Shown here: positions 48,302-52,569 of the stretch, piece by piece | How positions within the stretch are numbered: the stretch's first letter is position 1 | Layout: each line of letters opens with the position of its first letter | Assembly: GCA_023248545.1 (NCBI GenBank) | Contig: JAHFEF010000011.1 | Coordinates: 162-64,161 of the forward strand | Source of the DNA: Myxococcales bacterium | GTDB taxonomy: Bacteria; Myxococcota; UBA727; JABDBI01 | DNA: 64,000 nucleotides | Direction of reading: 5' to 3' | The notes under the pieces: model-generated | Seen by the model: the letters and a program-made list of their open reading frames with translations, nothing else | Databases searched by the model: none | What the model was told of the DNA's origin: nothing | Program-made: the position numbers and the translations under genes

Positions 48302-49528
48302 ATGAAGCCTTTGGAACATAAACGATATTTGACGGCTTACTTGCAGGAGCTGGCGTTGAACCGCGGGAAGATGGCTTTCCTGTCAGGGCCACGTCAGGCC
48401 GGGAAAACAACGCTTGCAAAGCATCTCCTCAAAACTCTTAGGCATGGGCACTATTATAACTGGGATGATATCGAGTTTAGAAGACTGTGGGCAAAATCGC
48501 CCAAGAAGACCATCCCTGTTTTGCCTGGCGAAACCCCACTGGTGATTTATGACGAAATCCATAAGGCAGCACGCTGGAAAGGGACCCTGAAGGGGATTTA
48601 TGACACATTAGAAACACCGGCCCAGATTTTGGTGACAGGCAGTGCCCGTCTCAATGTTTACCGAAAAGGAGGAGACAGCCTGCTGGGTCGCTATCTGCAT
48701 TTCCGTCTTCACCCGTTTAGTTTGGGCGAAATGGCTGGCAAGCTAGCGCCTGATCCAGAAATGGCGGTTCAAAATATTCTGAAGGCCAAATCGCAGGCAA
48801 AATCTGGTGATTTAGAGTCACTCATTCAGTTTGGAGGGTTTCCTGAGCCTCTTTTTGAGGGCCGAGAAGACTTGGCGTCTATTTGGCGCCGAGGTCGATT
48901 GGAAAAAATTGTGCGCGAAGACCTGAGAGACTTGAGCCGTCTCCCAGAACTCTCACAGGTTGAAATGTTGGTGGCGTTACTGGAAGAAAAGGCTGGTGGT
49001 GTCTTAAGTGTTGAGTCATTGCGCCAAGACTTAGATGTTGCTCATACCACCGTTCAACGCTGGCTGAACTATTTGAATCAGCTCTATTATTGTTATCAGA
49101 TCAGACCCTACAGCCGATCTGTTCCGCGTTCGCTCAAAAAAGAAGGTAAACTTTATTTGTGGGATTGGTCTGAAATTGAAAATAACCCAGGGGCTAGGTT
49201 CGAGAATGTTATCGCTGGACATCTTTTGAAGGCCAGTCATTTTTGGACTGACATTGGCAAAGGTGTTTTTGATTTGTTCTACCTGAGAAATAGAGACAAA
49301 AACGAAATTGATTTTCTAATCACAAAGAATAAAAAGCCTTGGGTTGCCGTGGAAGTGAAGTCTCAGGATACTGCTTGGTCACCCTCGTTCCAAGTTTTTC
49401 GCAAACAGATTCATATTCCGCATTGCTTTCAAGTCGTCAAAGTCGCGCATCCGACAAAAGTCTGGCACGATGAGTTTGGGACATGTGCTATTCTAGACGC
49501 TAATCATTTTTTGACCCATTTACCCTAA
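48302..49528 (+). CDS. AAA+ ATPase (AAA_14 + DUF4143-type ATP-binding protein)
   Basis: Walker A GPRQAGKTT, and typical COG1373 length and architecture. Its last ~180 nt are part of the tandem duplication. Confidence 0.7.
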   Translation: MKPLEHKRYLTAYLQELALNRGKMAFLSGPRQAGKTTLAKHLLKTLRHGHYYNWDDIEFRRLWAKSPKKTIPVLPGETPLVIYDEIHKAARWKGTLKGIYDTLETPAQILVTGSARLNVYRKGGDSLLGRYLHFRLHPFSLGEMAGKLAPDPEMAVQNILKAKSQAKSGDLESLIQFGGFPEPLFEGREDLASIWRRGRLEKIVREDLRDLSRLPELSQVEMLVALLEEKAGGVLSVESLRQDLDVAHTTVQRWLNYLNQLYYCYQIRPYSRSVPRSLKKEGKLYLWDWSEIENNPGARFENVIAGHLLKASHFWTDIGKGVFDLFYLRNRDKNEIDFLITKNKKPWVAVEVKSQDTAWSPSFQVFRKQIHIPHCFQVVKVAHPTKVWHDEFGTCAILDANHFLTHLP

Positions 49529-50983
49529 TGTGAAATCAAAAAAACGCCCGATGGTCACCGGCCGCGCACGGCGGGCCTTGAACTATTCATCCAGTCCTCC
49601 TATGCCCCAGGCATGGCCCTCACTCAATATTTCGTCGTGATTCTTCTTATTTCTGTTCCTGTGGGTGCACAAATTTCCGGAAGCTTTGAACTCGGGCGCA
49701 CACTGAACGCGATGCACCTAAAACATCAATCGATCGAGCAAAACGCCATCAACCTGGGTAATCTTTGGCAGTCCTTTCTCTCGTTGGCCAGAACTTTCGG
49801 TGTTTTCCAAAAATCAACGCTCCCGATCGATTCGCAACTTGCAACCTCAGTGCCCAAAGATTTGAAACAACCCTCCGAGTCCTTAGACAGCGCTCATCAA
49901 AAGGCGATGCGACAACTCAGCGAGCTCAAAGAACTTGCCGCTGAGCGCCCGCTCACTCAAAGCGAGCGTGATGGGCTCGAGAGACTCAAACTCCGAGAAT
50001 TTCTCGCTCCGGGTTGTGGCGTGGATGACAAAACAGCTGAGCTCCCAGAACAACAGCAGATTGAGAACTTTCCGGTCATATGGACTGCACCCGCTGGCGA
50101 ACAAGAATCACCGAATTCACAGATTACACTCACGGGGGGGATTTATATTGCCGACGTCCTCGATGTAGTCCTCAAATTCCTTCCATTCAAGTTGGGACCG
50201 TTCATGAGTGTCATCCATGTATCGAGAGCGTGGCGCAGGCAAGCTGAACAAGTCCCCCATTGGTTTGGGACATTGATTTGTAAAGCTCAGTGCTGCCAAA
50301 TCATCGTGCCGAGGCAAATAACGTCAGAAGGTAACATTCTTGGGCTGGAGATTATATTAACGTGGAGTTTAGAAAAAAGAATAAGGCTCATTTTTCCGTC
50401 TGGGTTCGATTGGTTCTCGATAATTCGAGCAAAATGCCTGTCAGTAGATGACAACTTTATCTCGCTCATCGCTCAACACTGCCAACACCTACAGTATCTC
50501 AGCGTATGTGGAAGTGTAGTCACAGACGCATCCATCTCGCTCATTGCTCAAAACTGCCCACGCCTACAGCACCTCGACGTATCTTACACCTGCGGTCAAG
50601 TTACAGACGCATCCATCTCGCTCATCGCTCAACATTGCCCAGGCTTACAGCGCCTCAATGTAAGTTGCACCCGCGGTCAAGTTACAGACGCATCCATCTC
50701 GCTCATCGCTCAACTCTGCCCAGACCTACAGCACCTCGACGTATCTTACACCTGCGGTCAAGTTACAGACGCATCCATCTCGCTCATCGCCAAACACTGC
50801 CCAGACCTACAGCACCTCGATGTATCTGACACCTACGGTAAAGTTACAGACGCATCCATCTCGCTCATTGCCAAACACTGCCCAGGCCTACAGCACCTCG
50901 ACGTATCTTACACCCGCGGTAAAGTGACAGACGCATCCATCTCGCTCATCAAGCAATTGTGCCCAAAGGCCCGGTGTTCGCGG
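49347..50983. repeat. tandem duplication unit 1 (~1637 bp): AAA-gene tail + intergenic region + F-box/LRR gene
   Basis: 49347-49700 is near-identical to 50984-51340. Homology continues with divergence through the genes. Confidence 0.85.
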
Positions 50984-50998
50984 TCGACGTGGAATTGA
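49613..50998 (+). CDS. eukaryote-like F-box / cysteine-containing leucine-rich-repeat (FBXL-like) protein, copy 1; hydrophobic N-terminus
   Basis: F-box-like IADVLDVVLKFLPFKLGPFMSVIHVSRAWRR (compare LPDEILLKIFSYL...VSKRW), then seven 26-aa LRR_cc units VTDASISLIAQHCPxLQHLDVSYTxGQ. The C-terminus runs into the duplication junction. Confidence 0.7.
   Translation: MALTQYFVVILLISVPVGAQISGSFELGRTLNAMHLKHQSIEQNAINLGNLWQSFLSLARTFGVFQKSTLPIDSQLATSVPKDLKQPSESLDSAHQKAMRQLSELKELAAERPLTQSERDGLERLKLREFLAPGCGVDDKTAELPEQQQIENFPVIWTAPAGEQESPNSQITLTGGIYIADVLDVVLKFLPFKLGPFMSVIHVSRAWRRQAEQVPHWFGTLICKAQCCQIIVPRQITSEGNILGLEIILTWSLEKRIRLIFPSGFDWFSIIRAKCLSVDDNFISLIAQHCQHLQYLSVCGSVVTDASISLIAQNCPRLQHLDVSYTCGQVTDASISLIAQHCPGLQRLNVSCTRGQVTDASISLIAQLCPDLQHLDVSYTCGQVTDASISLIAKHCPDLQHLDVSDTYGKVTDASISLIAKHCPGLQHLDVSYTRGKVTDASISLIKQLCPKARCSRSTWN
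50440..50960 (+). repeat. tandem 78-bp near-identical repeats (LRR-coding) inside F-box/LRR copy 1
   Basis: Units such as gttacagacgcatccatctcgctcatcgctcaac.ctgccca.gcctacagcacctcgacgtatcttacacc.gcggtcaa recur about 7 times. Confidence 0.85.
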
Positions 50999-51168: not shown

Positions 51169-51252
51169 TGTGAAATCAAAAAAACGCCCGATGGTCACCG
51201 GCCGCGCACGGCGGGCCTTGAACTATTCATCCAGTCCTCCTATGCCCCAGGC

Positions 51253-52569
51253 ATGGCCCTCACTCAATATTTCGTCGTGATTCTTCTTATTTCTGTTCCT
51301 GTGGGTGCACAAATTTCCGGAAGCTTTGAACTCGGGCGCACACTGAACGCGATGCACCTAAAACATCAATCGATCGAGCAAAACGCCATCAACCTGGGTA
51401 ATCTTTGGCAGTCCTTTCTCTCGTTGGCCAGAACTTTCGGTGTTTTCCAAAAATCAACGCTCCCGATCGATTCGCAACTTGCAACCTCAGTGCCCAAAGA
51501 TTTGAAACAACCCTCCGAGTCCTTAGACAGCGCTCATCAAAAGGCGATGCGACAACTCAGCGAGCTCAAAGAACTTGCCGCTGAGCGCCCGCTCACTCAA
51601 AGCGAGCGTGATGGGTTCGAGAGACTCAAACTCCAAGAATTTCTCGCTCCAGGTTGTATCGTGGATGACAGAACAGTTGAACTCCCAGAACAACAGCAGA
51701 TTGAGAACTTTCCGGTCATATGGACTACACCTGCTGGCGAACAAGAATCACCGAATTCACAGATTACACTCACAGGGGAGATTTATATTGCCGACGTCCT
51801 CGATGCAGTCCTCGAATTCCTTCCATTCAAGTTGGGACCGTTCATGAGTGTCATCCATGTATCGAGAGCATGGCGTAGGCAAGCTGAACAAATCCAACAT
51901 TGGTCTGGGATATTGACTCACGGAGTTGGGGGCCACCAATTCATCGTGCCGAGGCAAATAATTTCAGAAGGTGAGATTCTTGGGCTGGGGATCCATATGC
52001 CTTCGTGTTTTTGGAAAACCGCATGGTTCATTTCTCCGTTGGGGTTCGACTGGTCCTCGATAATTCTAGTAGTAGTAGAATTCCGGTTAGGAGCAGAGGA
52101 CAACAAACTCTCTTGTATTGCTCAACACTGCCCAGGCCTGCAGCACCCCGATGTACCTATTACCGGAGGCAAAGTTACAGACGCATCCATCTCGTTCATC
52201 GCTCAGCACTGCCCAGGCCTACTGTACCTCGATGTATCTTGGACCGGAGGTCAAGTTACAGACGCGTCCATCTCACTCATCGCTCAACACTGCCCACACC
52301 TACAGTACCTCAATGTATCTTGGACCGACGGTAAAGTTACAGACGCATCCATCTCGCTCATCGCTCAACACTGCCCACACCTACAGCACATCGACGTATC
52401 TTGCACCGCGGGTAAAGTTACAGACGAATCCATCTCGCTCATCGCTCAACACTGCCAAGGCCTACGGCGCCTCGACGTATCTTGTACCAACGGTAAAGTT
52501 ACAGACGCATCCATCTCGCTCATCAAGAAATTTTGCCCAAACGTGGTGGTGTATTGCGGAGCACCCTAG
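51253..52569 (+). CDS. eukaryote-like F-box / cysteine-containing LRR protein, copy 2 (diverged linker, intact C-terminus)
   Basis: The first ~215 aa are about 95% identical to copy 1. The segment between F-box and LRRs is heavily diverged. Six LRR_cc units follow, ending LIKKFCPNVVVYCGAP. Confidence 0.7.
   Translation: MALTQYFVVILLISVPVGAQISGSFELGRTLNAMHLKHQSIEQNAINLGNLWQSFLSLARTFGVFQKSTLPIDSQLATSVPKDLKQPSESLDSAHQKAMRQLSELKELAAERPLTQSERDGFERLKLQEFLAPGCIVDDRTVELPEQQQIENFPVIWTTPAGEQESPNSQITLTGEIYIADVLDAVLEFLPFKLGPFMSVIHVSRAWRRQAEQIQHWSGILTHGVGGHQFIVPRQIISEGEILGLGIHMPSCFWKTAWFISPLGFDWSSIILVVVEFRLGAEDNKLSCIAQHCPGLQHPDVPITGGKVTDASISFIAQHCPGLLYLDVSWTGGQVTDASISLIAQHCPHLQYLNVSWTDGKVTDASISLIAQHCPHLQHIDVSCTAGKVTDESISLIAQHCQGLRRLDVSCTNGKVTDASISLIKKFCPNVVVYCGAP
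52099..52540 (+). repeat. tandem 78-bp near-identical LRR-coding repeats inside copy 2
   Basis: Same unit as in copy 1, with variant residues at the inter-Cys positions. Confidence 0.85.

Follow-up and report, generated by a model that had tools for sequence, protein, structure and literature searches.

A tandem pair of Myxococcota genes joining FBXL-type leucine-rich repeats to an F-box-like segment and a signal-like N-terminus

Bacterial F-box proteins are known almost only from eukaryote-associated bacteria, chiefly from amoeba-associated groups and a few plant pathogens (PMC4209131). Here, we describe two adjacent genes that encode leucine-rich repeats (LRRs) preceded by an F-box-like segment and that are located in a 64,000-nt stretch of the genome of a Myxococcales bacterium (GenBank assembly GCA_023248545.1, contig JAHFEF010000011.1, positions 162 to 64,161 of the forward strand). 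This whole stretch is referred to as the window, and all coordinates are given within it. One of the closest described systems is the GALA (RipG) family of Ralstonia solanacearum, which likewise combines an F-box with LRRs of the cysteine-containing (CC) family, is probably derived from eukaryotes, and consists of diversified paralogues (PMC2244805; PMC13243912). The F-boxes of GALA proteins are recognised as such and have been reported to enable the interaction with SKP1 (PMC2244805). The NEX1a F-box-LRR families of Neochlamydia and Protochlamydia (Domman et al., 2014) form tandem arrays that arose by recent duplication, have an unexplained conserved spacer, and have been proposed to interfere with host ubiquitination (PMC4209131). 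AnkB (LegU1) of Legionella pneumophila follows the same concept, that of a bacterial F-box mimic recruiting host SKP1, with an ankyrin rather than an LRR partner domain. The existence of large families in amoeba-associated Chlamydiae (PMC4209131) also means that, in bacteria, the combination of F-box and LRRs is not confined to Legionella, VirF, and GALA, as an initial annotation of the window had stated.

With GALA/RipG and NEX1a the window proteins share an F-box-like motif and CC-family LRRs, and the proposed resemblance to bacterial F-box effectors holds in this respect. The differences are considerable. GALA repeats are 24 residues long, carry a GAxALA signature and constitute a CC-LRR subtype, whereas the repeats in the window have 27 residues. 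GALA proteins are substrates of the type III secretion system (T3SS) and have no Sec signal, while the window proteins start with a Sec-like segment; and the selected sites of GALA were reported on the convex face (PMC2244805), in contrast to variable sites in and after the beta-strand here. NEX1a families comprise tens to hundreds of members with a Pfam-detectable F-box at the very N-terminus and belong to obligate amoeba symbionts; the window has two copies, in a metagenome-assembled genome (MAG) of Myxococcota, and their degenerate F-box is preceded by an orphan N-terminal module. AnkB is a Dot/Icm substrate in which the Leu-Pro residues of the F-box are present and essential (PMC2790608), unlike in the window proteins, which lack them.

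Eukaryotic FBXL proteins (FBXL2, FBXL17, SKP2, TIR1/COI1), substrate adaptors of SCF (Skp1-Cullin-F-box) ubiquitin ligases, are also close counterparts. They have the same CC-type LRR with the VTD/ITD motif folded into an alpha/beta solenoid, yield the best matches both in sequence and in structure, and carry the F-box, as the window proteins carry the F-box-like motif, N-terminally of the LRRs. However, the window repeat has 27 and not 26 residues and Thr where the first signature Cys would stand, the F-box scores below threshold and has no Leu-Pro, about 177 N-terminal residues with a signal-like hydrophobic start and no homologue are added, and the genes reside on a bacterial chromosome. 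The architecture of a bacterial F-box with CC-family LRRs is already known, and what is unusual is the phylum, the 27-residue repeat, the Sec-like orphan N-terminal module, and the degenerate state of the F-box. In the full-text literature, we found no report of F-box proteins, host association, or a protist-associated lifestyle in Myxococcota.

The two genes lie on the same strand exactly at the positions initially annotated, and the N-terminal and F-box-like strings quoted then are present. The encoded proteins have 80% identity overall and do not differ at all in the first 121 residues. The genes and their parts are as follows.

49613 to 50998, plus strand: copy 1 gene, an intact open reading frame (ORF) of 461 aa, the last ~8 codons of which come from junction and DUF4143-tail DNA
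51253 to 52569, plus strand: copy 2 gene, an intact ORF of 438 aa with an apparently original C-terminus
49613 to 49669, plus strand: signal-peptide-like N-terminus of copy 1, MALTQYFVVILLISVPVGA with the putative cleavage before Q (KD19 hydropathy and sequence reading)
51253 to 51309, plus strand: identical signal-like N-terminus of copy 2
49670 to 50143, plus strand: orphan, mostly helical N-terminal region of copy 1, aa 20-177 (helices from AlphaFold2 (AF2), at low confidence)
51310 to 51783, plus strand: the corresponding orphan region of copy 2
50144 to 50251, plus strand: F-box-like segment of copy 1, aa 178-213 (custom hidden Markov model (HMM) 7.6 bits, and hhalign; no Pfam match)
51784 to 51891, plus strand: F-box-like segment of copy 2, aa 178-213 (PF12937 12.1 bits, custom HMM 10.0 bits)
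50252 to 50446, plus strand: diverged linker of copy 1, aa 214-278 (~70% nucleotide identity, low AF2 confidence)
51892 to 52095, plus strand: the corresponding linker of copy 2
50447 to 50995, plus strand: LRR array of copy 1, of the FBXL type, with one unit of 24 aa, five of 27 aa, and a C-terminal cap
52096 to 52566, plus strand: LRR array of copy 2, of the FBXL type, with one unit of 26 aa, four of 27 aa, and a cap

The LRR arrays are clearly of the eukaryotic FBXL (CC) type and not of a bacterial type. Residues ~274-455 match PDB sequences of FBXL2 (2.8e-34), FBXL17 (1e-23), TIR1 (5.8e-18), SKP2 (1.9e-13), COI1, and KDM2A/B, and Pfam LRR_6 scores above the cut-off in both copies, as does LRR_4 in copy 1. 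The AF2 model built on 84 aligned sequences has a predicted local distance difference test (pLDDT) score above 90 over aa ~274-461, where a regular strand-helix pattern forms an alpha/beta solenoid. All of the top 25 Foldseek matches to this model are F-box LRR proteins (best match 6o60_C, 1e-14), including FBXL2-SKP1, FBXL17, SKP2, COI1, TIR1, D3/MAX2, and KDM2B; the structures behind the leading matches are those of F-box LRR proteins solved together with SKP1 or ASK1. The assignment of the repeats to the cc type made from the letters alone is therefore upheld.

Copy 1 has seven repeat units and copy 2 has six, in line with the first count of six to seven per gene. According to Tandem Repeats Finder, both genes repeat with a period of 81 bp (5.3 and 5.0 copies, 86-88% matches). 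The period is thus 81 bp (27 aa) and not 78 bp (26 aa), as had been proposed, and the units, being 82-88% identical to one another, are not nearly identical; the consensus quoted in support of the shorter unit had itself 27 letters. The nine full 27-residue units follow the pattern VTDASISLIAQHCPxLQxLDVSxTxGx, with invariant VTD and with Thr at the first and Cys at the second signature position. In other words, the Cys at the end of the LRR beta-strand, eponymous for the CC class, is replaced by Thr, and the retained Cys is that of the HCP motif. The updated CC-LRR consensus comprises about 26 residues with an I/V-T-D motif and signature positions occupied by Cys (or Thr/Asn; Leu/Asn/Ser) (Kajava 2008, PMC2244805); the window repeat agrees with it but exceeds the canonical length of 26 by one residue. 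ORFs that overlie the arrays in alternative frames or on the minus strand (e.g., 50506-50829 and 52118-52738) were dismissed as repeat-frame by-products of the periodic sequence.

Besides the two window proteins, a database search yielded 105 homologues at E≤1e-3, all of them matching the LRR part only (23-59% of the query). Those with a named source are all eukaryotic and are often termed F-box/LRR proteins; they come from Mesostigma, Cymbomonas, the kinetoplastid Neobodo, Alexandrium, plants, and animals. Algal and protist proteins rank as the nearest relatives. No chlamydial protein could be identified among the listed homologues, though many of them are unnamed. The 27-aa period with the S-x-T-x-G-x-VTD motif recurs in unnamed environmental proteins that are 38-56% identical to the query. 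One of these (P0011, with the same 27-aa period) is encoded on a contig (L090) that also has genes for NudC, UBA_HYPK, and a PKD/ion channel of 2172 aa, and all of these genes lack introns and point in the same direction; the contigs of two others (P0014 and P0007) yielded hardly any Pfam matches and offer no diagnostic genes. As the homologues with source names are eukaryotic, P0011 is found on a eukaryote-type contig, and Neobodo is among the matches, our best inference is that the LRRs stem from a protist or an alga. We did not find the family in JGI metagenome contigs using exact DNA and degenerate peptide patterns, nor any relative of the LRR part in IMG/VR. The contigs encoding the environmental proteins closest to the 27-aa LRR variant have intron-less genes, which are co-directional in L090 as well as in L091 and form two divergent blocks in L083, a layout which we take to resemble that of kinetoplastid gene clusters.

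The pair arose by a tandem duplication whose breakpoints can be traced. Upstream of copy 1 lies a gene for an ATPase with a DUF4143 domain, and the duplicated unit starts inside it. The features of the duplication are listed below.

49342 to 50981, plus strand: duplication unit 1, with the DUF4143 tail, an 84-nt intergenic region, and copy 1 (direct repeat D2)
50982 to 52621, plus strand: duplication unit 2, with the DUF4143 tail remnant, the intergenic region, and copy 2
50968 to 50985, plus strand: junction filler of ~18 nt, homologous to neither parent
50986 to 51168, plus strand: duplicated DUF4143 tail remnant, inside a 69-aa ORF (50959-51168)
49462 to 49941, plus strand: tract 100% identical to 51102-51581, covering the ATPase tail, the intergenic region, and the first 110 codons

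The direct repeats (49342-50981 versus 50982-~52621) are spaced by 1640 bp from start to start, and blastn aligns 49342-50868 with 50982-52523 at 89.8% identity. The initially described duplication including the tail of the DUF4143 gene is thus real, except that the unit measures 1640 bp and not 1637 bp. The ATPase gene itself is single; only its last ~185 nt are duplicated, as a by-product of the breakpoint position. Homology between copy 1 and copy 2 stops near 50967, and homology to the DUF4143 tail (from ~49346) begins at ~50986. Since the filler and the ATPase tail lie beyond the point where homology ends, copy 1 terminates in junction-derived codons (…CPKARCSRSTWN), compared with …CPNVVVYCGAP in copy 2. 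Judging from these breakpoints, the best explanation is an illegitimate event that began within the DUF4143 gene and extended as far as the 3' end of the LRR gene. Two ENA contigs from other samples carry the same arrangement. One (L081) corresponds to positions 48111-51181 at 99.5% identity and, starting at the end of clpA, spans the DUF4143 gene and copy 1 and enters unit 2; the other, from a third sample (L082), corresponds to positions 50680-62569 at 99.9% identity and contains the copy 1 LRRs, the junction, copy 2, Phd/PIN, tlyA, folD, and the genes onward. The junction between the copies is crossed in both of these independent metagenome assemblies, and the duplication is thus not an artefact of a single assembly, a concern raised with its first description.

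Divergence between the copies is unevenly distributed. Beyond the identical tract, the identity is ~94% at 50002-50241, ~70% at the nucleotide level in the linker, and ~85% in the LRRs. Because the 480-nt tract has accumulated no change at all, even in its non-coding part, while dS in the linker is ~0.25, its identity points to gene conversion rather than to constraint. L081 differs from the window at 14 sites (49976-50174), and at every one of them its copy 1 has the copy-2 state; either the conversion tract is longer in that population or short reads were joined into a chimera. The linker is indeed the most diverged part, as noticed initially, but identity above 95% characterizes only the 5' flank and not the LRR arrays. 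In the linker, dN is 0.42 and dS is 0.25, a ratio of ~1.7 that is based on few sites (~9 synonymous and 46 non-synonymous differences), and we do not claim positive selection there. In the nine full repeats, scaffold codons 1, 7, 9, 10, and 16 vary synonymously only, and non-synonymous differences concentrate at positions 15, 18, 23, 25, and 27. DSSP places the beta-strand at repeat positions 18-20, and so the variable residues fall in or just after the strand, on the usual ligand-binding face. As read from the codons, this pattern is the signature of functional, diversifying binding domains and not of pseudogenes. Together with the divergence of the linker, it bears out the suggestion that the duplication was followed by diversification.

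The segment at aa 178-213 lies N-terminally of the LRRs, in the order seen in FBXL proteins, and is probably a divergent or decayed F-box, although it fails the formal tests of the family; binding to Skp1, predicted from this motif, would be only possible. To score it, we used a custom HMM made of ten Pfam-verified F-boxes of the LRR homologues, which was scanned against residues 1-275 of copy 1 and 1-278 of copy 2, with 2000 composition-preserving shuffles as the null. Copy 2 scored 10.0 bits, a value reached by none of the 2000 shuffles, and copy 1 scored 7.6 bits, reached by two of the 2000. The best placements were aa 181-220 in copy 2 and aa 185-213 in copy 1. In the same register, hhalign aligned the profile of the two sequences with the ten F-boxes (P 8.4e-5, probability 60%). 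The positions of the F-box core are kept (L183, V186, L187, L190, and V203), as is the Trp of helix 3 (W207), and VSRAW of the segment aligns with V(C/S)(K/R)xW. When the segments were excised, PF12937 was the sole Pfam family reported for that of copy 2; that of copy 1 gave no match. Since the profile tests beat chance in the expected register, a relic of an F-box or a divergent F-box is likely.

Several results weigh against a genuine F-box. Neither full protein matches any Pfam F-box family at E≤1, and the excised copy-2 segment reaches only 12.1 bits against a PF12937 gathering score of 24.3 (library-wide E 0.17); the Pfam check with PF00646 and PF12937 proposed at the outset thus came out negative. 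The conserved Leu-Pro is absent and replaced by Tyr-Ile or Ile-Ala, the residues aligned by hhalign being Y178-I179. Replacement of Leu-Pro abolishes SKP1 binding by AnkB, and this pair has been described as essential in eukaryotic F-box proteins (PMC2790608). In addition, the helix-2 region has a two-residue insertion with Gly-Pro. Neither AF2 model has a confident three-helix F-box fold: the one based on the deep LRR alignment places helices at aa 179-193 and 205-212, with pLDDT 40-66 over aa 165-274, and the one based on the two paralogues places them at aa 181-189, 196-198, and 205-213, with pLDDT below 30 (lowest 22). No PDB chain was retrieved with the profile of the segment at E≤10. Conservation of the segment between the two copies is uninformative, because gene conversion affects that half of the genes. 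Therefore, of the F-box initially assigned to both proteins, the core pattern with its Trp and the above-chance profile scores stand, whereas the Pfam threshold and Leu-Pro do not, and the helices are predicted at low confidence. We also compared the segment with the N-terminal motifs of the closest LRR homologues (P0003, P0006, P0014, and P0020); BLASTP gave E 2.6, an HMM of the window segment detected none of them, and co-transfer of F-box and LRRs is left unsupported.

The N-terminus of both proteins resembles a Sec signal peptide, as predicted from hydropathy and from reading the sequence. The first 19 residues form the window of highest hydropathy in the protein (KD19 = 1.96), and P at -4 with V-G-A at -3 to -1 before Q20 make a good signal-peptidase pattern. 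There is no K or R before the hydrophobic core, and several basic residues, R29 and K37 among them, follow it. The lack of a basic n-region had been recorded correctly; the N-terminus is otherwise a good Sec-type signal, which is at odds with effectors of the T3SS or the type IV secretion system (T4SS). For residues 1-275, HMMER found no homologue except the paralogue among 1.84 billion representative proteins, Pfam has no match, and AF2 gave no confident model of aa 1-274 with either alignment. An NHL-type protein (P0231) was rejected as an N-terminal homologue, being a spurious multi-repeat match via GVYIAD. Cysteines make up 3.7% of copy 1 (17 residues) and 2.7% of copy 2 (12 residues), compared with 1.1% in the other proteins of the window. 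Such a content would suit a reducing cytosol, as is typical of cytosolic CC-type LRRs, and would be awkward for an extracellular site.

The reading that we tentatively prefer, without regarding it as probable, is that a eukaryote-derived cassette was duplicated and kept as a pair of paralogues acting on proteins of a eukaryotic cell, possibly via Skp1/SCF. Each protein would then consist of a lineage-specific N-terminal module (a Sec-type signal or anchor and ~155 orphan, mostly helical residues), a degenerate F-box-like motif, a variable linker, and a eukaryote-derived FBXL-type (CC) LRR solenoid. The F-box-like/LRR part would have been acquired horizontally by a low-GC Myxococcota lineage from a protist or alga and fused to the lineage-specific export or anchor module, and the cassette would have settled in a variable island between clpA and tlyA. 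After the illegitimate tandem duplication from the DUF4143 interior to the 3' end of the LRR gene, gene conversion would keep the promoter, the signal, and the N-terminal halves identical, and divergence of the linker and of the concave-face LRR positions would produce two binding specificities. The effector-like protein would leave the bacterial cytoplasm, its LRR surface would bind proteins of a eukaryotic cell, and the F-box-like motif may link the bound proteins to Skp1/SCF, as is thought for GALA/RipG, AnkB, and the chlamydial NEX1a; by analogy with these, hijacking of a host ubiquitin system is possible. Apart from the state of the F-box, three points speak against this scenario. Substrates of the T3SS or T4SS do not typically start with a Sec-like segment; we saw neither a secretion system nor any independent sign of host association in the 64 kb of the window; and the neighbours in the island are a defence-candidate ATPase and a toxin-antitoxin pair rather than virulence genes. 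The initial inference was that the organism interacts with a eukaryotic ubiquitin system or has domesticated the fold; nothing in the window shows contact with a eukaryote. A bolder version, which we consider unlikely, is that the Myxococcota lineage lives with, in, or on a protist and exports cysteine-rich FBXL mimics that were acquired from a protist donor and dock onto a divergent host Skp1 without Leu-Pro, so that the two gene-converted paralogues would send different host proteins to the SCF ligase. If true, Myxococcota would have their first pair of ubiquitin-system effectors, and these would mark a hidden lifestyle directed at eukaryotes in the phylum.

The same proteins might instead be exported binders with a dead F-box, namely adhesins or receptors for prey, a host surface, or kin in the periplasm, on the surface, or in vesicles, with no link to ubiquitination. 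After the transfer, the LRR solenoid alone would have stayed useful and become fused to a bacterial signal peptide and N-terminal module. The Sec-type N-terminus, the lineage-specific orphan module, and the degenerate F-box without Leu-Pro agree with this, and variation on the concave face is expected of any LRR binder; however, the 12-17 mostly unpaired-looking Cys suggest CC-type LRRs ill-suited to an oxidising compartment, and the F-box-like hydrophobic core with its Trp is still recognisable above chance. We hold this explanation to be rather unlikely, if somewhat less so than docking onto a divergent Skp1. The cysteines would be better accommodated in the cytoplasm, by a domesticated protein held by an uncleaved N-terminal anchor and acting as a cytoplasmic LRR sensor or scaffold, possibly with the PDC-S01-like ATPase. 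Basic residues are absent before the hydrophobic segment and present after it, and an N-out/C-in topology is thus possible; moreover, the genes are directly downstream of the candidate defence ATPase, the tail of which was co-duplicated, and adjoin Phd/PIN. Against that, no PADLOC model matches either LRR protein, the ATPase is not duplicated apart from the breakpoint by-product, and the residues at -4 to -1 resemble a cleavage site; we consider domestication quite unlikely.

Finally, the locus might be a non-functional relic of transfer or an artefact of assembly or contamination. The family is confined to one organism, as no relative of residues 1-275 was found among the 1.84 billion representatives or in the JGI contigs, nor one of the LRR part in IMG/VR; no ribosome-binding site is evident upstream of the ATG, and the F-box is degenerate. 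These observations are outweighed by two intact ORFs of 438 and 461 codons, by LRR scaffold codons with synonymous changes only, by independent assemblies from other samples that connect the locus with clpA at one end and with Phd/PIN-tlyA-folD at the opposite end, and by GC and third-position GC (GC3) within or at the edge of the range of other genes in the window, and we regard a relic or artefact as very improbable. Returning to the duplicated eukaryote-derived cassette, an FBXL-type LRR pair with an F-box-like remnant would extend the class of F-box proteins to Myxococcota, and the locus hints that an uncultured low-GC lineage may interact with protists. It would also offer a compact view of evolution after transfer, with fusion to an export module, duplication with traceable breakpoints, conversion of the 5' half, and divergence of the binding face. 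If the F-box is inactive, a eukaryotic adaptor scaffold would have been reused for another purpose in a bacterium.

The surroundings of the pair are those of an ordinary bacterial chromosome, with MutS, PNPase, the nuo operon, transketolase, ClpA, TlyA, FolD, and HisC, and GC of ~48%. PNPase is 79-91% and ClpA 70-87% identical to the proteins of MAGs labelled by their submitters as Myxococcaceae, Myxococcota, Myxococcales, or Deltaproteobacteria, and the nearest cultured genus in the ClpA match list is Sorangium (56-58%). Against GTDB species genomes, the top ClpA matches have 52-57% identity and are taxonomically mixed, and hence uninformative for placement. The genes between clpA and tlyA are the following.

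48245 to 53350, plus strand: accessory insertion between clpA (stop at 48244) and tlyA, comprising the DUF4143 ATPase gene, the two F-box-like/LRR genes, and Phd/PIN
48302 to 49528, plus strand: AAA_14 and DUF4143 ATPase (Pfam AAA_14 4.7e-24, DUF4143 3.9e-25), the 3' end of which is the start of the duplicated unit
52648 to 53350, plus strand: Phd/YefM antitoxin and PIN toxin (Pfam families on L082; TIGR01552), closing the island

In relatives with 87% (L088/L089) and 81% (L086) ClpA identity, clpA is directly followed by tlyA, and in a relative with 90% ClpA identity (L087) the Phd/PIN pair alone follows clpA (L087 4730-5405), without the ATPase and the LRR genes. As these relatives lack them, the DUF4143 ATPase gene, the LRR genes, and Phd/PIN form a ~5-kb accessory insertion at a variable spot. 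Among the PADLOC models, the ATPase matches that of the candidate defence gene PDC-S01 (PDLC04790, 7.2e-56, residues 7-368), and the island therefore resembles a small defence or accessory hotspot; the PADLOC models gave no match for either LRR protein. We found no flanking inverted repeats bounding the island, no Rfam match in the region, and no compositional anomaly there, the LRR part having at most marginally raised GC and GC3. No Shine-Dalgarno sequence or convincing sigma-70 promoter is evident upstream of either copy. In the duplicated intergenic region upstream of each LRR gene, the minus strand has a terminator-like hairpin, CCGGTGACCATCGG, followed by a T-run (49548-49561 and 51188-51201), and no minus-strand gene ends at either of them.

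Elsewhere in the window, a 291-aa protein (17279-18154, minus strand) has a Paramecium surface antigen domain (PF01508, 4.3e-12), another cysteine-rich domain type with a eukaryotic name. A GDA1/CD39 nucleoside phosphatase (PF01150) is encoded at 8208-9458 of L087, the contig of the relative with 90% ClpA identity. This family is mostly eukaryotic and is known in Legionella, and its presence may be a further hint of eukaryote-like genes in the lineage. Directly upstream of clpA and overlapping it, a gene at 41782-46065 (plus strand) encodes a 1427-aa fusion of an AstD-like aldehyde dehydrogenase, two class-III aminotransferase regions, and a GNAT acetyltransferase, which is kept in relatives (e.g., 1454 aa in L086). 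Three ORFs of 908, 647, and 464 aa (6552-9278, minus strand; 30049-31992, plus strand; and 57762-59156, minus strand) gave no Pfam match at 1e-5. Over 24000-30000, the AT skew is strongly negative (down to -0.25); as this skew coincides with genes for nuoL/M/N-type membrane subunits, it reflects composition rather than an anomaly.

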